A DNA stretch of 64,000 nt from an uncultured archaeon (GTDB lineage: Archaea > Nanobdellota > Nanobdellia > Woesearchaeales > CAIVOO01): assembly GCA_963845175.1 (NCBI GenBank), contig CAWJRI010000001.1, positions 6,874-70,873 of the forward strand. The letters are read 5' to 3'. This document shows positions 1 through 16,469 of this stretch, in pieces. Below the pieces are notes generated by a model that saw only the letters and a list, made by a program, of their open reading frames with translations, searched no databases and was not told the origin of the DNA. Every line of letters begins with the position of its first letter. The stretch's first letter is position 1. The translations under genes and the position numbers were made by a program.

Positions 1-349
1 TTTCTATTTGCTCGTGATTGCGAACAATTTCTATACGATTTCACTGATAACTTAAGATACACTCCCTACATTGTCTTACTTGGGCACGGTGTTCAACATT
101 CTCATCTTCCATATCCTGTACCTCATATATTTTTCGAGGAAGTCCAGCGATAATTCGATCTTGAGTTGTAGATACCATAACGAGACACGCTCCCGCAAAC
201 CTTGCGGCGCAAGCTGAAATGTTGGCTCTGTCACGTTATCAATCTTCCGAAGTGTCAATCGTTGAATTCTTCTGTGTAATAATATTTGAACCATGGTTTT
301 GGATCGAACCAGAACTGCGAAGTGGTGTTATTTCCCGAATTAAACTGTT

Positions 350-798
350 TTACAAGCACCGCGTCAACCCTTTGACCATCACATTCGCGTGCCGTTGCTG
401 GTTTAGTCCGCCTTGTCGTTTAATAAGCGCGCGGCAAACGTAAAGATAATCCCAATTACGACGAATACGTACATCCACATTTGCAAGTTGCTGCGTGACG
501 AGATCCATATCCATCCTGCGCTTGCGCGTTTGTAACAGAATGTACAAAAACACGGTTGCGCTTGCTTCCCGAGAGACGACAATCGAAATAGCTGTGCTTC
601 ATCGACACCGAGAGAAATATCGTACAAATTCTGATTATTCTCAAGCATTTGTTCAAGATTGATCAGTTTATACGGAAACTTCAGGTGATAATTTGCATAA
701 ATGTTGCGTTTTCGCGTCTACCAGTCATAAAATAACATGCGCGTCAGTAAAACGCTCTTGCCGCTTCCCTTTGGTCCGACGATTATGCGAAGTGCCAT
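350..798 (-). pseudogene. P-loop NTPase (Zot / viral morphogenesis ATPase-like), disrupted
   Basis: ATG at 798-796. Walker A is IIVGPKGSGKS and Walker B is LGVDEAQLF. There is an in-frame TAG at 720-718. The sensible continuation (LLQTRKRRMDMDLVTQQLANVDVRIRRN) lies in another frame (ORF 350..553), and further fragments continue to about 76. Confidence 0.6.
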
Positions 799-1047
799 TC
801 ATTTTTCCTTTGTCACCGAAAATTCTGCCACTTTTCCGCGAGAGTTGTCAACAGGATTAACTCCGGTAAGCAGGTAAATAATTTTTCGTCCGAGAGCGGC
901 AATTTCTTCGACCTGCCATGATCCGTACCTGAAGTCGTCGGGGGATTGAAAGATTCTTTCAATCCTGATCTCGATACCTTCTTCTCGCTGCAATCGTTTT
1001 CGTTCATCTGGATCGAAGATCCCCGGCGCTGTTTTCTTTATTTTCAT
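799..1047 (-). CDS. hypothetical protein (virus-like block)
   Basis: 82-aa ORF. Its stop (801-799) abuts the NTPase ATG. Confidence 0.4.
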   Translation of the reverse strand: MKIKKTAPGIFDPDERKRLQREEGIEIRIERIFQSPDDFRYGSWQVEEIAALGRKIIYLLTGVNPVDNSRGKVAEFSVTKEK

Positions 1048-1585
1048 TGTACACGGAACGGCATTGATGCCATTGGTCCCATTCCACCGCCGCGTCCTCC
1101 GTGACGATGTTCTTCAAGCCCGGAAAGCTGTCAACAACTTCTTTGCGCGATCCACGGTTATGCGAAACCATGTTTGCGAGATGATGTTCGACGAATTTCT
1201 TCATACGTTCCGATTGAAACGTGTCGGCAATCTCATTAAGAACCGTGACCGCGCGTACTTCATCGCGCGTCATCTCGCTTTGCATACGAAGATCATCTTT
1301 ACCCATGAGCGCGATAATTGCTTTTGCAGTGTCGGAATCCGTTTTTTCTTCCGTTACGACATGAAAACCATTCTCTTCACCGTTTTCTGTTGCACCCGGA
1401 GATGGTCTTTCGATGCCGCTTGAAGTAATATTGTCGATATGATCGTCGGGAGGAGTTAAAATTTGTTCATCGGACGGTGTGAATGTACCCGGCGGTACAT
1501 CCTCATCGATTTTTTCCTGCATGTATTCTTCGAGTGCGTCAGGATCGTCGGCATAAGTATCAATTCCCGCTTTGTACTTACGCAA
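1004..1585 (-). CDS. Acidic hypothetical protein. It is probably joined by a frameshift to ORF 1456..1680.
   Basis: Asp/Glu/Pro-rich 193-aa ORF with a TTG pseudo-start. Its frame is open upstream and overlaps ORF 1456..1680 (MSRLDDIRARR...), which starts right after the stop of the upstream gene. The likely junction is at an A5/G4 run near 1610-1625. Confidence 0.4.
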   Translation of the reverse strand: MRKYKAGIDTYADDPDALEEYMQEKIDEDVPPGTFTPSDEQILTPPDDHIDNITSSGIERPSPGATENGEENGFHVVTEEKTDSDTAKAIIALMGKDDLRMQSEMTRDEVRAVTVLNEIADTFQSERMKKFVEHHLANMVSHNRGSRKEVVDSFPGLKNIVTEDAAVEWDQWHQCRSVYNENKENSAGDLRSR

Positions 1586-1681
1586 ACGTGCTTCGCTGAC
1601 AATTCGCCCCGCTTTTTCGGCTCTGCTACAGTAACCTCTTGGTGAATTCTGCGCGCTCGAATATCATCAAGTCGTGACATA

Positions 1682-2301
1682 TTACATCACCGGCGGAGGA
1701 GGCGTACCTGAATTTGTTGCTGTAACAACTGGTACAGGTGTTACCGGTACTATTGTTGGTGTCGGTGTTACACCCGGCTGTACAATCACGCCGCCGTTCT
1801 GTACTCCGATGAGTTGTGAAAGCTGCGCGCTGATATTTTCGAGAGACTGACCGTTCTTGTAGTTGAGATAACATCCGGCTCCTGCGGCACAAATTGCGAT
1901 AATCAGCAGCAGAGACGTTGTTTTCTGGAACTTTGTCTGTTCATTATTGCGCGGCAAGAGCTCAGCCATGGCACGAGTGCCCATAAAAATCGCGTCACCC
2001 AACTCTTCTGAGTGAAAGATGCTTTCGCTTCACGTCGCTTGATGGGTCTCGGATCATTTTCGTAAAAAGCAATCGCTTTGTACGTCGTTGAACCGATTAA
2101 TCCTTTCTTGTCATAGTCGAAGAAACAATCGGGATCGATGTAATACTTCTTCCGTACCGATCCATCGGGAGAAATCGATGTGTAAAACTGTTCACCAGCT
2201 TTCACTTCTCCTTCTCGCATCTTGTTATCGTTCCCGATTACGAGAACTTTGATCAAATCATCACTCATCATCATCACCTGACCGCTTTGTTGATTGTGCA
2301 A
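1682..2301 (-). pseudogene. Single-pass membrane protein with a Pro/Thr/Val-rich tail, split by a frameshift
   Basis: ORFs 1903..2301 and 1682..2002 overlap in different frames. Read together they give a soluble N-domain, a TM helix (SLLLIIAICAAGAGCYL) and a PVTPVPVV tail. Confidence 0.4.
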
Positions 2302-2563
2302 TATTTCTCGCTCGCATTAACCACATCCAGAAGAACCCTGCAACAGCGTATGCAATATTTTGTGCCCTGATTATCTGATAACCAGCACACGTTGACATCG
2401 CAATCGGTACATTGATTGAAGGACCGCCTGAAAATATGGAAGTGTAGTCTCCGCGCATGTAACAGAGACCCCAAAATACGACGAAATAAAGGAGAAGCGC
2501 AGCTAAACCGTCGAATGCGACAGGAATAACTACTTCTTCTATCACTTTACGTTTTACTGACAT
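2261..2563 (-). CDS. small multi-TM membrane protein
   Basis: 100-aa ORF with hydrophobic segments (LAALLLYFVVFWGLCY, AYAVAGFFWMWLM). Confidence 0.45.
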   Translation of the reverse strand: MSVKRKVIEEVVIPVAFDGLAALLLYFVVFWGLCYMRGDYTSIFSGGPSINVPIAMSTCAGYQIIRAQNIAYAVAGFFWMWLMRARNIAQSTKRSGDDDE

Positions 2564-2617
2564 GCTTTGCCTCTATGTCAACAGTTGTTCATCGTGCGAT
2601 ACAATAAAGTTAACGGT

Positions 2618-2914
2618 TTAATCTCCGGGTGGAGGTTGCCCCGTTTCTTTCGGTTTCATTTTTTCTTTTTCTATCATGAGTACCAGTATCGAGAAGATGT
2701 AATATATCGAAACGAGAGCGAATAATTCACCAAGCGTAATACCATACGCAACAATCACCGTTTTCACAAAGTCATTCGCGTAGATCATCGCTGCTAACAC
2801 GAATGAAACGAGCGAGAACACAAAATCTTTGTGTTTTTCTGCGAGCATGATGAATATTGTCCAGAACGACAGGAGAATTACTGCTCCCGCTGCCGTAAAT
2901 GCATCATAAACCAT
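2618..2914 (-). CDS. small multi-TM membrane protein
   Basis: 98-aa ORF with three hydrophobic helices. Its start overlaps the upstream stop by 1 nt. Confidence 0.5.
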   Translation of the reverse strand: MVYDAFTAAGAVILLSFWTIFIMLAEKHKDFVFSLVSFVLAAMIYANDFVKTVIVAYGITLGELFALVSIYYIFSILVLMIEKEKMKPKETGQPPPGD

Positions 2915-3420
2915 TACTTATCACCTCTGAACCACGGGAATAATCCTTCAACAACCTGCACGACGCGCACAATTAGCACCACTCCCATGAGCGTGAGCGG
3001 AATACCGAACAGGAAATTGAGCGGGAACGGTGCCGCAGGTATTACACAAGCAACACCGCCAACTGTACCGCACGTAACCGGCGAACCAACCCATATCCAT
3101 GTGAAGAGGAAGATTGAAGCTAAAGAAATTAAGAAAGCAAGTATTCCTGCGATAAAATTAACTATAGCAATTATAGCATCTATAAGCCATCCTACAAAAG
3201 TACCAACGGGACATACCCAATCTGTAAATGGGATTATTGGAGAACCACAAGAAGCCAATGATGGAACTATTATTGGTGTAATTACCGAAAACGTAAACGG
3301 CGAGGGAATGGTTGCTCCCCCAAGATCGACCATTGCCGCTGTTACGAACACGTAAACTATCGTAGCAAAGATGATCATGCTCATCGAGAGCTCAATTGCC
3401 GCGCGCGTTTTATCTTTCAT
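2914..3420 (-). CDS. multi-TM membrane protein
   Basis: 168-aa ORF, almost entirely hydrophobic, with Cys/Pro/Gly-rich loops. Confidence 0.5.
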   Translation of the reverse strand: MKDKTRAAIELSMSMIIFATIVYVFVTAAMVDLGGATIPSPFTFSVITPIIVPSLASCGSPIIPFTDWVCPVGTFVGWLIDAIIAIVNFIAGILAFLISLASIFLFTWIWVGSPVTCGTVGGVACVIPAAPFPLNFLFGIPLTLMGVVLIVRVVQVVEGLFPWFRGDK

Positions 3421-3423
3421 CGC

Positions 3424-5549
3424 TTACCGTCCCATCCCGCTTTCTGTTGGTGAAGCTTCGCCACCTCCGCCAAAAATATTCTTGGAATTAATTGCTATTA
3501 CTGCCGCTGCTATGATTGCGATAAGCAGGATCACGTAAATGTTAAACAGCCCGAGCGCGTACACGATGATTACACCAAGCGCGCCGCTGAAGATTGGCAC
3601 CGATCCCGGCAGGTTCCATCTGCGGAAGAGAACCATCGGCAGGAATGCGAATATCAGCACAATGATTACGCCGATGATGATCATTCCAAACGCTGTTGCA
3701 ATTCCGAACCATCCGCCGAGCCAGTTGCCCCAATTTGTCGGATCAAAGATGTTGTTGCTTACGCTTACCGTAGCAGTTGTCAACGGTGTTACAGCCACAT
3801 CAGCGGTCAATTTCGCATAGTACGTGCCCGTCTTGTCATCTGTACTGCCAAGAGGCATTGTCTTGAACGAATACGGCACTTTGTAGAGGAATGGTGCGCC
3901 CGGTGGATGATCTGCGAGAGTAAATCCGTTACTGTTGTACACGAGTTCTGTTCCACCACCCGGTAGATTATGATACACACTTACGTTCACGTAACTGTAC
4001 CCGGCTGTGAGATACGAGATCGGAACAGAGACGTACACGTACGGATTGTCGGTTGTTGAGTACGAGGTTGCCGTAGATGCATCGGGCTTTGCCATTCGCA
4101 GGAAACCAACCATGTTCACATTCGTCAAATAGAAATCTGCTCCCGCTGGCGGAGAAATGCTTGTTACAAGGCTTACCGGATGAGCATTAAACGTAGCAGG
4201 CTCTTGTCAATAAAGCCCGTGCTTGACGCATTGAGATTTCCAATAACAAACAACTTCGAGATCGTATAGTCGTACGCATTGAGAGCATGATTCTGTGTCT
4301 CTCCCGTGATGAAATCGGTCATCTTCTCCGTTAACGTAAACACACTTGTAGTGTAGTTTGCGTTAAATTCGTGGTACGGAGGAACTCCAACACCCGGCTG
4401 TACCGTTGTGTTTACAACCTGTATCATCGGACGATAATATGACGTTGCGTACAGTGAACCCGTCGTACACGAATGTTACTGCGTCGGTATCAGTAAGCGA
4501 CGCGCCAGATACGAGCGTTGCAGGTAGATGATCAGCGGTTGTAATCGCAAGCGACGTTGCGTGCCATGCAACCGTGACAGGAATGCTCGTGAAGTACGTA
4601 TAATTCGCGCCATGCGTGCCGTAAATCCAGAGATTTGTGTCAGCCGGTCCATTGATTACCGTGTCGGTTGAAAGATTGAACGTACTTTGTCCAATATCCG
4701 AAGCCTGAATTGGCGATGGTGGCAATCCCGGCGCTGTTAACGAACCAGAGAACGCACATACTGAGCTTCCCGCTCCCGCTGCAACAGGATTTGCACAGAG
4801 AGCGAACCAATATCTTCCCGAAGTCGTGTTGTGCGTCAATATTCCGTACGTGTCGTATCCTGATGGAATGTTTGCCCATGCGAGCGTGTCGTACCCGGCA
4901 CCGAGATAGATTTTATTTGCTGCCGGTGCTGAAATTGAGACCGTTGGTGTACCCGGCGGTGGTGTTGGTGTCGGTGTTGGTGTTGGAGCGGTGCCAACGT
5001 ACATGAATGACGATGAAATGGTTGTACCGCCATTACCATCGGTCAAATACATGTACCAGTAACCGATCTGATCCGTATAATACGTCGCGCTACCTGAAGC
5101 CGCAACCGATGAATTAAAGAAATTACCATCGGGTTTCTGTACGTCGATATACGGTGAAGCAAGTCCCGTTGACGACCACGAATACGGCGCATAAGTATTC
5201 AAATAGCCCGGTGGAGTTGTCCATGAAACAGTACCAACATTTGAAATCGAAATCGTGCTTGATGAAAGCAATGAACCGTAGTAACCATACATGTAATACG
5301 TCCAGACACCGTTTGCCGATACTGTCTGTACTCCACTGCCACCAGCACCGCTCACGCTCGTATTCGACCATCCGCCGCCCGGTATCGAAAGATTAAGGAA
5401 ATAAGTATTCCCGGTAATTCCTTCATGTGTAAACGAGAATGATTGGTCTGATCCGTACAATCCAGTCGGGTTTGCCCACGCGATATTACCATATTCCGTA
5501 ATTTCGCTTACGGTAAGAGCGCTGATTGAATAAACGAGACCTCATACAT
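3424..5549 (-). pseudogene. Large spike/adhesin-like structural protein with C-terminal TM anchors, interrupted by 2-3 frameshifts
   Basis: ORFs 4363..5460, 4173..4427 and 3424..4128 are consecutive, overlapping open frames. The frame of 4363..5460 stays open to 5541 and a candidate ATG lies at 5549-5547 in another frame. There is a TPTPTPTPTPPPGTPT linker, and the C-terminus has TM helices (IIGVIIVLIFAFLPMVLF, LLIAIIAAAVIAI). Confidence 0.5.
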
Positions 5550-5567
5550 GTTCCATTGGCAGTTATT

Positions 5568-5575
5568 TATTTAAA
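5568..5575 (-). promoter_or_regulatory. TATA box (TTTAAATA) for the spike-like gene
   Basis: The reverse complement of tatttaaa lies 18 nt upstream of the candidate ATG at 5549. Confidence 0.35.
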
Positions 5576-5648
5576 CTTTTCAGTCAGGCACGTAAGAATC
5601 ACGGGAATAAATCGCGTGAGGAATTATGGGCTTAATATTCACAATCTT

Positions 5649-5656
5649 TTTAAATA
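5649..5656 (+). promoter_or_regulatory. TATA box (TTTAAATA) for the thioredoxin-CcdA gene
   Basis: tttaaata lies 20 nt upstream of the GTG start at 5677. Confidence 0.35.
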
Positions 5657-5676
5657 GTCATATATGAACTAGTGCT

Positions 5677-6777
5677 GTGAAAGCCAAAATACTGATACCT
5701 TTTATGCTGCTGCTTCTTGCCAGCGTTGCCTATGCGCAGGATGAGAAAACCTGTTTATATTTCTTCTACGGAAACGGTTGCCCGCACTGCGCAAGGGTTG
5801 AGCCGCTGATTAACCAGCTTGGCCAGAGGGCTGATTTAGATGTGAAGCAGTTTGAAATCTATTATGACCGGGAGAATGTCAATCTGCTCCAGCAGTATTT
5901 TGACTCATACAATGTCCCTGAAGATCAAAGAGGGATTCCGGCTGTGTTCATCGGAAACACATACCTGTCAGGCGACACGCCGATTCTCGACAAGCTTGAA
6001 AAGGTGATAAAACAAAATAATGGCTCCGCATGCCCGGTGGTTGGCCAGAACAACAAGACAGGAATAAGCGGGCCGTCATCGCCGACATCGCAGGCAGTTC
6101 ATACATTATCAATCATGACAGTTATAGGCGCCGCAATTGTTGACTCAATCAACCCCTGCGCAATCGCTGTTTTGTTAATCCTGCTTGGAACTCTTCTCAA
6201 GGCAGGAGACAGGAAAAGGGCACTGTACTCGGGCATAGCATTCATTGTTTCAATTTATATTGTCTACTTCCTCTTCGGGCTTGGAGTTTTCCAGGCACTA
6301 AGGGTTTCCGGACTGTCGTTCTGGTTCTATAAACTTATTGGTGTAATTGCAATCCTGATTGGTCTTGCAAATCTGAAGGACTACTTCTGGTACGGCAAGA
6401 TTTTCGTGACAGAGATACCGAGGAAATGGAGGCCGACACTGCAGAGGATGCTCAAGCATGTCACTTCGCCCCTAGGCGCATTTGTCATGGGCTTTGTCGT
6501 CTGCCTCTTTGAACTGCCCTGCACAGGCGGTCCATATTTGTTTGTCCTTGGTCTGCTGGCTGAAAAGACAACACAGATTATTGCAATCCCGACATTGCTC
6601 CTGTATAATTTATTTTTCGTGCTTCCGCTTATACTGATAACTGTATTCATATTCATCGGCCGCACAAACATTGAGAAGACAAATGCCTGGAGGGAAAAGA
6701 ATTTAAGGGTGCTTCACCTGATAGCAGGAATAATAATGCTCGCGTTGGGATTGTTTGTTGTAACAGGAATTCTTTAG
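5677..6777 (+). CDS. Secreted thioredoxin-like domain fused to a CcdA/DsbD-type thiol:disulfide electron-transfer membrane domain
   Basis: Signal peptide, a CPHC thioredoxin motif, then a multi-TM domain with the two CcdA Cys motifs (DSINPCAIAVLL and FELPCTGGPYLF). Confidence 0.75.
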   Translation: MKAKILIPFMLLLLASVAYAQDEKTCLYFFYGNGCPHCARVEPLINQLGQRADLDVKQFEIYYDRENVNLLQQYFDSYNVPEDQRGIPAVFIGNTYLSGDTPILDKLEKVIKQNNGSACPVVGQNNKTGISGPSSPTSQAVHTLSIMTVIGAAIVDSINPCAIAVLLILLGTLLKAGDRKRALYSGIAFIVSIYIVYFLFGLGVFQALRVSGLSFWFYKLIGVIAILIGLANLKDYFWYGKIFVTEIPRKWRPTLQRMLKHVTSPLGAFVMGFVVCLFELPCTGGPYLFVLGLLAEKTTQIIAIPTLLLYNLFFVLPLILITVFIFIGRTNIEKTNAWREKNLRVLHLIAGIIMLALGLFVVTGIL

Positions 6778-9887: not shown

Positions 9888-10191
9888 TTTGAGTGTCTCT
9901 CATGTCAGTATGCAGCTTTTCCAGCTGCAGCTGCGGCCGCTCCGCGATGTCGTAGTCAAAGCCGACAGCAAAAAGCCTTCTGTGAGGCGGGCGCATGGAG
10001 TGGCGCTTGTTAAACCCCTCCACAATCTTGTCGAGGTTCTTAAAATCCTCATATGTTCCCGGGGAAATCAGGGTTAGCTGCGACGATGGGCCGTAGGCGT
10101 CAACAATGCCCTGCGGCGCGTACTTCCTTATCACATCCATTGTGTCTGAAAATATGTTGAATCTGTCCTCGTCTATTATGTCCAGCGGCAT
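9847..10191 (-). CDS. hypothetical protein (intact paralog of the 10.6-10.95 kb relic)
   Basis: 114-aa ORF. MPLDIIDEDRFNIF...GPSSQLTLISPGTYEDF...IVEGFNKRH aligns with LPLNVLENPSNYGIF...GPEFQITSIFPDTWVET...IVEDFNTKY. Confidence 0.45.
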   Translation of the reverse strand: MPLDIIDEDRFNIFSDTMDVIRKYAPQGIVDAYGPSSQLTLISPGTYEDFKNLDKIVEGFNKRHSMRPPHRRLFAVGFDYDIAERPQLQLEKLHTDMRDTQNVEQITERADRAS

Positions 10192-10203
10192 TCCGTTCTC
10201 GGG

Positions 10204-10947
10204 TTATTTCGAAAAATACCATTGTAACAGCCGACTCCAGAGATTTTTCAAGAAGCGTGTCGAGAAAAGGTGATTTGCATAAGCCAGTGACTGCCTGTTT
10301 TCCAAGTAAAGCGACTGCATGTATTTTCTTTTATTGGCCCTCCTCCAGGCATCAACTGCAAGGAACAGTCTGTATTCGTGATTCCATATGCCTCGATTTT
10401 GTGCATCTCTTTTTCCTCTCGGCAAAAGCGCCCAGGCGGACATTTTCAGCCATTTCAGCTGAGTTGAGATATTCCTTCAGATGGTAAATGCATCCCATCG
10501 CTTCGGAGGGTGCAACTTCTTTATTTTCGCGCACCCTGTAAAGTGTTTCCTTCTCAAAAACAGTCCTGCATGTCGGGCACTGCGCGTATTCTCAACTTCT
10601 TTTTTCATCTCTTCCCCACCATGTTTTCCCCGGGCATCATGCCGCGGCATTCCTGCAGCCCTTTGTAAAGTGCATCTATCAGTCCATAAGGGATTTCATC
10701 TGGCCTATGCACATGAATGATGCCGAGCCATTCTCACGTCCTCTGCCGGATATTTTGTATTGAAATCTTCAACTATCCTGCAGAGTTTTTGCTGCGTTTC
10801 CACCCAGGTGTCTGGGAATATACTTGTTATCTGGAATTCAGGTCCGAGCGTTTCTATAAAACCGCCCTTGTTGCGGAATCTTATTATATATTTTGCAGTA
10901 TGGAATATTCCATAATTACTTGGGTTCTCCAAAACATTTAGCGGCAG
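10204..10947 (-). pseudogene. Decayed gene pair: a paralog of 9847..10191 lacking its ATG, plus a CPTC zinc-ribbon-like gene broken by frameshifts
   Basis: At the position homologous to the Met there is CTG (10947-10945). ORF 10705..10932 continues in another frame (IHVHRPDEIPYGLIDALYKGL...). The downstream reading MKKEVE / EYAQCPTCRTVFEKE... / ...DAQNRGIWNHEYRLFLAVDAWRR needs two frame changes, one at an A5 run. Confidence 0.5.
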
Positions 10948-14604: not shown

Positions 14605-16469
14605 TTAGCTGAAGAAGTTTCTTATCTCACTTATATAATTTTTGCTTACAGTGTATTCTGTGTCAGAGGGCAGGCACTGCTTGTAAAATGGCGTTGCATA
14701 TCTTTTGTCCAGCAGAATCAGAACACCCTTGTCTGTCTCGCTTCGTATGCATCTTCCTGTTGCCTGCACAGCTTTATTAATTGCAGGAAAGAAATATCCG
14801 TAATATTTTCCGATGCTTCCGAACTTCTCCTCATAATACTTGATGAGCTCTCTTAGCTCGAGATCAGGCGGATTCAGCGGGATGCCCACCACAACAACGC
14901 ATTTCAGAATCCTGGCATATCAATGCCCTCGCCGAAGCTTCCTGAGAAGACATTCAATAAAACCGCTTCCTTATAGCTGGTGAACTTCTCAAGGAAATTC
15001 TTCTTCTCCTCCTTTCCCATTTTCGTTTCCCTGAATGTTGTTTTCCTGCAGATTTTTGAGAAATAATTGTCAACATCATCCCTGAACCTATAGCTCGGGA
15101 AATAAAACGCAGAATGACCTGGCACTGTGTTTGCGATTTCAGCGCAGATTTTTGCAATGTTCTGGTACATCGCAGGGCTTCTCTCAGCCTGAAGCGATGT
15201 TGTCAGCGGAATTATCAGGTTTAATTTATTTTTTTCAGGGAAAGGATTTTCAAACTCCTCTTCCTCGCATTTCTCAAGCCCGAGCAAATCCTTGTACATT
15301 GCAGTCGGCCTTAGCGTCCCGCTCATGACAATTGTTGAATATGCTTTTTCAAAGACAGGCGCTGTTACAATCGAGGCATCCAGGCATTTGTATAACAAAG
15401 TCAGCACAGGCTTGTTTTTTATCCTTCTGCTGCCTACGATTCTCGTAAACCCGTCGTCAGGCCCTCTCCAGGATTCCAGGAATTTTGAGATTCCGCCGAT
15501 GAATGAGCGCTTCTGCCTCAGCCTGACTGTATCTGCAATCAATTCAAGGTCAGCAACTATCTTGTCATAATCATTTATCTTGTTCACTTTGCTGACGAAA
15601 TCATCTTTTTCAACCAGCACTTCGTATATGTTTTGTTCAGGCTCAAGCTCCAGGCTTAGGTCCTCGAGCACTTTCTTTATTCCGCCAAGGAGTTCAGCTG
15701 TCTCGTCAAAGTTGTATTTTTTCGCCTCCGTAATTGCCCTGTCAATTGTGATGCTTGTGAGTCTTTCGGAGACAAGCTCCCGCATCCTGTCAGAAAGATT
15801 GTGCCCCTCGTCAATCACAAGGATGCATTTCTCAAGCTCGATGCCCGCTCTTTTGAAAAAGGAGTTTCTTATGTTTTCATTGAACACATAGTTATAATCA
15901 GAAACAATGACAGAAGAATCTTTTGCAAGGTTAATCGCCAGCTCATAGGGGCAGACCTTGCTCTGCCTGCAGACCTCTATTATTTTCTCTGTGTGGCACG
16001 GGCTGAAGAATTTTATGTCAGACAGCACTTTCCTTGCCTGCACACTCAAACTGTTCCCGTTTTTTGAATTCTCGTAGAATTCGCAGCTTCCGCCCTCCCT
16101 CAGCGACTTGCAGTACTCGGCGAACTCAAATGAATGAAGACCCTCGACAGCAGGCTGGAGGCACATGCCCCTTTTCCCTATTATGTCAGCTGTGATGAAC
16201 TTTGTCCCGTACTTTTCCTTGATCAGATTCAGCGTGTCAATGGCAATCAGGTGCTGGGTGTGCCTCGATGTGAGGAAAAAAACCTTCAGGTCTTTGTCGA
16301 GCGCATACTTCAGCACAGGCGAAAGCACAGCAGATGTTTTTCCCAGACCGGTCGGCGCATGGACAATGAGATTTTTCCTTTCAACAAGGGTTTTTACAAC
16401 TGCCTCAATCAACTTGTCCTGCTTTTCCCTGACTTTTTCATGCGGAAAAAGAAATTCTTCTGCCTTCAT
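14605..16469 (-). pseudogene. xpd: XPD/Rad3-family 5'-3' DNA helicase with a single frame break
   Basis: Walker A HAPTGLGKTS, a DEGH box (VIDEGHNL), and a Cys-containing insert where the XPD 4Fe-4S cluster domain would lie. The 521-aa ORF ends ...FGEGIDMPGF*. The next frame is open from 14919 and reads ILKCVVVVGIPLNPPD...GRCIRSETDKG (helicase motifs V/VI). Confidence 0.8.

Follow-up and report, generated by a model that had tools for sequence, protein, structure and literature searches.

A virus-like morphogenesis block at one end of a Woesearchaeales contig: viral sequence probably joined to a host chromosome in assembly

The closest described relatives of the element reported here are spindle-shaped-type viruses of Asgard hosts, namely Muninn virus (OM716000; 12.7 kb, linear), which infects Candidatus Odinarchaeum, and the Lokiarchaeota virus WyrdV1 (MZ666939) of the Wyrdviridae. 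In both, the gene for the capsid protein is followed by an adhesin gene, a block of small membrane protein genes, and a gene for an adenosine triphosphatase (ATPase). Wyrdviruses encode a pI-like ATPase without a transmembrane (TM) domain, five conserved genes separating adhesin and ATPase, many Zn-finger genes and, in linear members, a protein-primed DNA polymerase B (pPolB) (bioRxiv 10.1101/2021.07.29.453957). Here, we describe a virus-like element of 12.4 kb with two convergent arms that lies at the end of contig C1 of a metagenome-assembled genome (MAG) of the archaeal order Woesearchaeales (687 kb, 20 contigs, 65% complete). The window, a stretch of 64,000 nucleotides (nt) corresponding to C1:6874-70873, holds one arm of the element as a gene block at positions 1-5539; the block sits 6.9 kb from the left end of C1, and the 6873 bases to the left of the window, which complete the element, were read as well. 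Relatives of the MAG have genomes of about 1 Mb and belong to an order with very many families.

A first-pass annotation of the window had taken the block for a resident provirus or plasmid remnant in decay, a reading that would have implied long-term coexistence of virus and host in a lineage with few known viruses. The evidence presented here indicates that this reading was mostly an assembly artefact. The block is real virus DNA, with frame breaks that are most likely consensus errors and a join to the DPANN chromosome that is most likely an assembly mistake. It would represent the morphogenesis half of a nearly complete, small, linear archaeal virus genome of 12.4 kb or more. Homology and gene order suggest that the virus would replicate by means of its own pPolB and that its virions would be membrane-associated, and probably spindle-shaped or pleomorphic; on the same grounds, extrusion or assembly at the membrane would be driven by an adhesin with C-terminal anchor helices, by several small hydrophobic proteins, and by an ATPase that is soluble and Zot/pI-like.

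The host junction and the foreign character of the block

Short-read contigs from Logan (L046, from run ERR10755942, together with L047 and L048) were located by exact-sequence look-up and compared with C1. L046:4594-6872 agrees with C1:12413-14691 at 2278 of 2279 positions without gaps, and leftward of this stretch the two share no similarity. The identity ends at window positions 5540-5544, just past the ATG of a host gene of 417 amino acids (aa), of which only that codon (5546-5544) is left in C1. L046 runs on leftward into host genes, comprising the 417-aa gene, PolX-PHP and an acetyltransferase, none of which is found anywhere in the MAG; the adjoining DsbD-like host protein is also encoded on L046, as exact-sequence look-up showed, and a genome of the same genus likewise has PolX beside DsbD. 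Since the identity with L046 ends at this point, both the TTTAAATA box (5568-5575) and the ATG (5546) come from the host, and the adhesin gene at the edge of the block is left without a start codon or signal peptide of its own. The ordinary divergent promoter that had been ascribed to the block, and that had served as the argument against a chimeric join, is thus a host promoter, and the junction lies just past the host ATG. We propose that assembly joined viral sequence to the end of C1, which would have cut off the 5' end of the adhesin gene as well as the 417-aa gene just past its ATG.

The same comparison bears on the age of the element. Only 1 nt in 2279 separates the flank from the empty-site contig, too little divergence for some 20-30 neutral indels to have built up in the element. 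At the right junction, the only one to which this comparison extends, the same-strain contig L046 shows the site unoccupied, and neither an integrase nor flanking att repeats was found. All eight intact host proteins that were tested were found in Logan, as opposed to none of three intact small viral open reading frames (ORFs); two frame-affected host products, like the three viral ORFs, are on record from the MAG only.

The 417-aa gene itself (L046:3346-4599, run ERR10755942) contains repeats, has no Pfam match and lies between PolX and DsbD, where the same-genus genome lacks it; the PolX/DsbD spacer seems to be a variable spot.

That the block is viral, compositionally foreign and a morphogenesis module had been proposed from the sequence at first reading, and this view is borne out. 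By tetranucleotide distance, 6-kb windows of the block come 5th, 8th and 13th among 199, the signal is normal again right after C1:12.5 kb, and a Zot/pI-like nucleoside triphosphatase (NTPase) stands at the end of the module. The G+C content ranges over 43-50% per kb in the block and averages 41% in the genome, a contrast of the kind reported from early spot counts, although the gap is smaller than those counts had suggested. The predominance of CGN among its arginine codons was correctly noted, at 78% in the block versus 13% in host genes (Fisher p = 1.5e-23). The corresponding figure is about 81-83% in the closest relatives of the element, L015 (Logan, SRR29243458, 9 kb) and L016 (SRR27943125, 2.3 kb), and 11% in L043, a viral contig binned with another DPANN genome. 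Because the arginine usage of the element and of L015 and L016 is opposite to that of the DPANN genome and of L043, the codon evidence suggests that the host of the virus is most likely another archaeon of the sample, one preferring CGN codons.

Frame lesions and assembly errors

Eight frameshifts and one in-frame TAG interrupt the block (Table 1), so that nine lesions fall within 5.3 kb at a density of 1.7 per kb. In the host part of the window the density is about 0.1 per kb, as estimated over 45 kb of aligned coding sequence with the same-genus genome as guide. The first-pass annotation had counted at least seven disruptions; the TAG is confirmed, as are six frame changes at refined positions. 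The change it placed at 5541-5549 is the host/foreign breakpoint and involves no frameshift, and those at 402-404 and 1119-1121 had been missed. The simplest repairs were inferred with L016 as guide, and five of the eight frame changes amount to a net loss of 1 nt. Several of the breaks pinned in this way are best read as 1-nt losses in short homopolymers, and the repair at 1119-1121 also restores an ATGA stop/start overlap between the acidic protein gene and the gene for the 82-aa protein. None of the five intact NTPase homologues has a codon in the place of the TAG, and deleting it restores their exact spacing, which points to a 3-nt insertion or a pair of closely spaced compensating indels rather than a simple nonsense substitution. 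In the pPolB gene, to the left of the window, there are at least six, and by eye up to nine, frame changes in 2 kb, with no stop within the correct frames. Over the whole element the ratio of frameshifts to in-frame stops is about 15-20 to 1, larger deletions are absent, gene lengths agree with those of relatives, and ATGA coupling is kept.

An array of prokaryotic pseudogenes that has long been decaying is expected to carry many more substitutions and stops, to show indels of mixed sizes, and to have lost conserved residues. No such mixed lesion spectrum or loss of conserved residues was found in the window's block. Of 50 alignment columns without variation among five intact homologues, the read-through product of the NTPase gene matches 45, and two of the five misses lie at a guessed frame junction; the intact members themselves score 81-96% when each is left out in turn. 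By this measure the NTPase appears to show no sign of relaxed constraint.

Errors of the same kind were seen directly in host sequence. Between L047 and C1 there are three 1-nt indels and six mismatches, all clustered within about 420 nt (window ~10000-10416), where a gene that is broken in the MAG is one open ORF in L047. Outside this patch L047 matches exactly over the surrounding 2.2 kb, L046 shows a single mismatch, and L048 is exact; the errors in the consensus are local to this stretch. The core exosome subunit Rrp42 is encoded in two frames, with the break inside its RNase PH domain (G000:C16:26809-27217), and the XPD gene, compared with that of the same-genus genome, carries a 1-nt deletion at window position 14910 in a conserved helicase motif; both are probably assembly errors rather than pseudogenes. 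When the XPD neighbour and the last host gene before the C15 junction were looked up in Logan, their exact proteins were not on record. That the indels might be consensus errors had been named beforehand as what would overturn the provirus reading, and this is seen directly for host genes; for the block it is reached by inference.

High-GC DNA, with 1-kb peaks of about 61-67%, terminates four further contigs of about 40% GC (C6:40501-44848, C7:27501-29468, C13:1-1500 and C15:80501-85566). The C6 end, the one examined for frame breaks, carries bacterial-type DctP, IclR, cyclase, cupin and SDR genes, of which DctP and SDR are split between frames when compared with Pfam, and the junction cuts DctP. 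These four are likely chimeric contig ends. Foreign sequence that lies at a contig end and is ridden with frameshifts is therefore a recurring feature of this assembly and not peculiar to the viral block. The MAG should accordingly be used with caution, as it has several chimeric contig ends and patchy indel errors, and 'pseudogenes' such as Rrp42 and XPD are not to be read as biology.

All three of the host/foreign junctions that were inspected lie near the 5' ends of host genes: that at window position 5540, about 5 nt past the start; that at G000:C6 ~40600, about 60 nt past the start as judged by eye and inside a putative signal peptide; and that at G000:C15 ~80500-80600, about 100 nt before the start. 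AT-rich promoter regions may be favoured sites of breakage or misjoining.

Weighing the alternatives

A fixed provirus or plasmid remnant decaying by real frameshifts would account for dense lesions confined to the foreign block, for the truncated adhesin gene, and for the fact that no integrase remains. This account of a resident provirus, which was the original one, is nevertheless very improbable: the site is empty in a same-strain contig whose flank differs at 1 of 2279 positions, frameshifts far outnumber stops and several breaks are best explained by 1-nt homopolymer losses, conserved residues and gene lengths are intact, and identical lesion patterns occur in the bacterial DNA at the C6 end and in a host gene that is intact in short-read data. 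Even less credible, and barely to be entertained, is the idea that the frame changes are biological signals, either programmed frameshifting or stop read-through. The frames do resume cleanly, and the products are homologous past every break; yet the five intact homologues, as well as L015 and L016, use single open frames, the breaks share no common slippery motif, and breaks of the same kind are present in host and bacterial genes of this assembly. Recoding of TGA or TAG was rejected, as the intact homologues need none. An integration that was recent and polymorphic, present in a minority of DPANN cells and captured when the assembler took the minor path, would still leave the frame breaks as low-coverage consensus errors, and we regard it as unlikely. 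It would fit a junction at a gene start beside a strain-variable spot, the 417-aa gene being absent from the same-genus genome, and L043, which has the same module order, was binned with another genome of the order; furthermore, integrated viruses have been reported for another DPANN lineage, the Nanohaloarchaeota (bioRxiv 10.1101/2025.02.15.638363). Against it, integrase and att repeats were not found in the element, an insertion with a cut adhesin gene would be dead, the arginine codon usage is opposite to that of the host, and four other contig ends of the MAG hold plainly foreign bacterial-type DNA. In addition, viruses with protein-primed polymerases are normally linear and non-integrating.

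The preferred explanation, an assembly mistake joining real virus DNA to the chromosome, with frame breaks that would be mostly single-base consensus indels from a poorly covered or unpolished stretch, has its own difficulties. A step in coverage and errors inside the viral block are inferred, not seen in reads. The changes at 585-594 and both changes in the adhesin gene are not demonstrably in homopolymers, and the TAG, as an additional codon, is atypical of single-base error. The breakpoint also falls within about 5 nt past a host start codon, for which the chance in a random chimera is about 1%, and this position could be a hint of a real recombination event. A pPolB virus of the 9-13 kb group described below, distant kin of wyrdviruses and Muninn virus, would then truly have recombined into a Woesearchaeota-like chromosome, with the insertion falling exactly on a strain-specific gene's start codon and confined to a fraction of the population. 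We consider this quite improbable, but such an event would give a first look at a normally linear, non-integrating virus entering a DPANN genome.

Gene content and comparison with known systems

The minus-strand order of the block, from a spike through membrane proteins, an acidic protein and an 82-aa protein to a P-loop NTPase, is as the first-pass annotation described it, given a three-frame reading of the adhesin and the Pfam Zot match of the NTPase. The C-terminal anchor of the adhesin is homologous to the C-termini of a 952-aa protein of L015 and a 608-aa protein of L012 (E ~5e-10), and to nine other proteins. Apart from the anchor no homologue of the adhesin was detected; the full-length read-through product had no match among 5.8 billion proteins, and a search of 61 related genomes found it in its own genome only. 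Neither the adhesin nor the 168-aa protein has close relatives in IMG/VR, and the exact sequence of the latter is on record in this MAG only. The sole similarity detected for the 98-aa protein is to the C-terminus of a 1373-aa PKD/LamG protein of L012 (E 3e-7), and no spike or membrane protein of the block has a Pfam or PHROG match. The ~195-aa protein is homologous to a 199-aa protein of L015 and a 190-aa protein of L012, and the acidic protein has a motif, MVSxNRxSRKE, that recurs in the protein encoded immediately upstream of the ATPase in both WyrdV1 and Muninn virus (E 1e-5 for the latter). The read-through NTPase matches Pfam Zot (PF05707) with 26 bits at a cut-off of 20.3, as well as the PHROG families 'Zot-like toxin' and 'protein I of M13'. 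Its alignments with five intact proteins (184-187 aa) reach 99-100% coverage and show 63-42% identity.

On the plus strand of the left arm, the pPolB gene is accompanied by several small Zn-ribbon genes in a row and by a DUF5658 membrane gene. Searches of this sequence for an integrase and att repeats, which the provirus reading had made worth looking for, found neither, and the replication gene is pPolB. In the 12.4-kb element as a whole, no integrase, no tRNA gene as an integration target, and no convincing terminal inverted repeats or att-like or flanking repeats were found; the element is truncated on the right by the junction and on the left by the end of the contig. When a phage collection was searched by megablast, the 12.5-kb element had no match. 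As a separate observation, two paralogous CxxC Zn-ribbon genes of the element (L001:2781-2954 and 6068-6241) are 77% identical in DNA.

Table 1. Features and frame lesions of the element and its junction (window positions unless marked C1)
Feature	Position	Strand	Remarks
Convergence zone	1-254		End of plus-strand DUF5658-like membrane gene entering from the left; short unassigned minus-strand ORFs
Zot/pI-like morphogenesis NTPase, ~182 aa, without TM helix	255-798	-	Pfam Zot; intact homologues
Frame change, NTPase (last)	402-404	-	A run; AAAA read as AAA; repair gives homologues' exact spacing
Frame change, NTPase (middle)	546-550	-	T5 run
Frame change, NTPase	585-594	-	Not demonstrably homopolymer
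In-frame TAG, NTPase	718-720	-	Stop
82-aa protein	799-1047	-	44% identical to L016 95-aa protein, 41% to L015 69-aa protein
Acidic protein, ~212 aa	1044-1680	-	Three frames, colinear with L016 203-aa protein
Frame change, acidic protein (second)	1119-1121	-	G run; GGGG read as GGG
Frame change, acidic protein (first)	1607-1617	-	A5/G4 runs
~195-aa protein, one TM helix, TP-rich tail	1682-2274	-	Two frames, colinear with L016 196-aa protein
Frame change, ~195-aa gene	2023-2025	-	A run; AAAA read as AAA
Two-TM protein, 100 aa	2261-2563	-	47% identical to first ORF of L016
Three-TM protein, 98 aa	2618-2914	-	Intact ORF
Multi-TM protein, 168 aa	2914-3420	-	Intact ORF; weakly similar to L012 107-aa protein in the same position
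Adhesin/spike-like protein, ~700 aa	3424-5539	-	TPTPTPTPPP linker; three-helix C-terminal anchor; 5' end missing
Frame change, adhesin	4176-4206	-	Not demonstrably homopolymer
Frame change, adhesin	4366-4478	-	Not demonstrably homopolymer
Host/virus-like breakpoint	5540-5544		L046 alignment ends here
Host intergenic region	5545-5676		Same as L046; divergent promoters of DsbD-like gene (GTG 5677) and 417-aa gene
pPolB	C1:600-2575 (left of window)	+	Read-through product; PF03175 proteins, 31% identity, 94% of length

The nearest relatives are unclassified metagenomic sequences, L015 and L016 together with L012, L013 and L014 (from ENA, JGI and Logan). This group has homologues of the adhesin anchor and of the ~195-aa, acidic and 82-aa proteins; it differs from the element in that all its ORFs are intact and its adhesin ectodomains are unrelated. 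L016 is colinear with window positions 258-2524. L015 follows the same two-arm plan, with a 71-aa two-TM gene, the 952-aa adhesin, six smaller genes, the NTPase and a convergent pPolB; its 71-aa gene, directly upstream of the adhesin, has no counterpart in the window. In L012, positions 2590-6711 encode the 1373-aa protein, a PKD/Laminin_G_3 adhesin ending in 80 residues that are similar to the 98-aa membrane protein encoded separately in the window, which suggests fusion or fission of an adhesin and a small membrane protein among these relatives. The element, which would work like Muninn virus and WyrdV1, is not assigned here to any named family and belongs with this handful of metagenomic 9-13 kb genomes.

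Of 401 genomes of the order, 52 gave a match to a Zot-like P-loop ATPase. That these matches represent widespread proviruses was rejected, since the three long-contig loci that were mapped (L038, L040 and L042) proved to hold a lone TM-anchored protein amid housekeeping genes, and L043 alone was virus-like. This protein (L038:9449-10309, L040:9633-10445 and L042:9375-10211) has 270-290 aa, an N-terminal TM helix and a conserved C-terminal YIYSDxFxGFV...LPSFW motif, and is apparently a paralogue, of cellular origin, of the pI-like ATPase of the viruses. L043, a whole contig of 14.3 kb (G349:C19) from the other DPANN bin, encodes large TM-anchored proteins, small TM proteins and an ATPase, with host-like arginine usage of the AGR type, and is more likely to represent a genuine DPANN virus of this type.

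The likeness to pleolipoviruses and inoviruses that was drawn at first holds as approximate logic; the detectable relatives are Muninn virus, WyrdV1 and the metagenomic pPolB genomes. With the Pleolipoviridae the element shares a general plan of anchored spike, small membrane proteins and terminal P-loop NTPase, and pPolB occurs in the gammapleolipovirus His2. However, tblastn of the NTPase against the collection of phage and archaeal-virus genomes gave no pleolipovirus match at E <= 0.01, and sequence searches (Pfam, PHROG and tblastn) found no homologues of the VP3, VP4 spike and VP8 NTPase of HRPV-1. The Zot and protein I matches recall the Tubulavirales, but the ATPase of the element has no TM segment, pPolB takes the place of a rolling-circle Rep, and promoters and relatives are archaeal; neither a TM-anchored pI/Zot nor rolling-circle replication, the marks of that order, was found in the element.

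The correspondence with Muninn virus and WyrdV1 is closer. In the tblastn search against deposited phage and archaeal-virus genomes, these two were the only archaeal matches of the NTPase (6e-11 for WyrdV1 and 8e-9 for Muninn virus). Their ATPase is homologous and likewise without a TM domain, with an identity of only ~30%, and their gene order is matched by the element from the adhesin on: as in other members of the spindle-shaped assemblage (Halspiviridae, Wyrdviridae and Muninn-like viruses), a TM-less pI-like ATPase ends a block of an adhesin and about five small genes. Muninn virus also has a pPolB convergent on the morphogenesis block, and it and the wyrdviruses share with the element the possession of many small Zn-ribbon genes. 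A pPolB is present as in linear members of the assemblage, and no terminal inverted repeat was seen in an element of which both ends may be missing. The adhesin and most of the small proteins have no detectable similarity to those of Muninn virus and WyrdV1, and G+C content and codon usage differ. In these named relatives the capsid gene lies upstream of the adhesin, a position that is beyond the junction here, and a hidden Markov model (HMM) of the His1-like major capsid protein, which has about 80 aa and two hydrophobic segments, built from the two WyrdV1 copies and Muninn virus, found none in C1:1-12700 or in the rest of the MAG. A His1-like capsid gene may lie beyond the junction, or the group may use a different capsid protein. 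As candidates, the 100-aa two-TM protein proved unrelated by hhalign, and the 71-aa protein of L015, which fits by pattern, was not recognised by an independent three-sequence HMM and is not claimed as a capsid protein.

Taken together, these comparisons indicate that the viral sequence is real and that it belongs to a small set of unclassified genomes, 9-13 kb long, that encode a protein-primed polymerase together with a pI-like ATPase. The group is tied to the spindle-shaped virus assemblage through this ATPase and a conserved partner protein, and it modestly widens the known spread of the ATPase/partner module beyond Asgard, halophilic and thaumarchaeal hosts.

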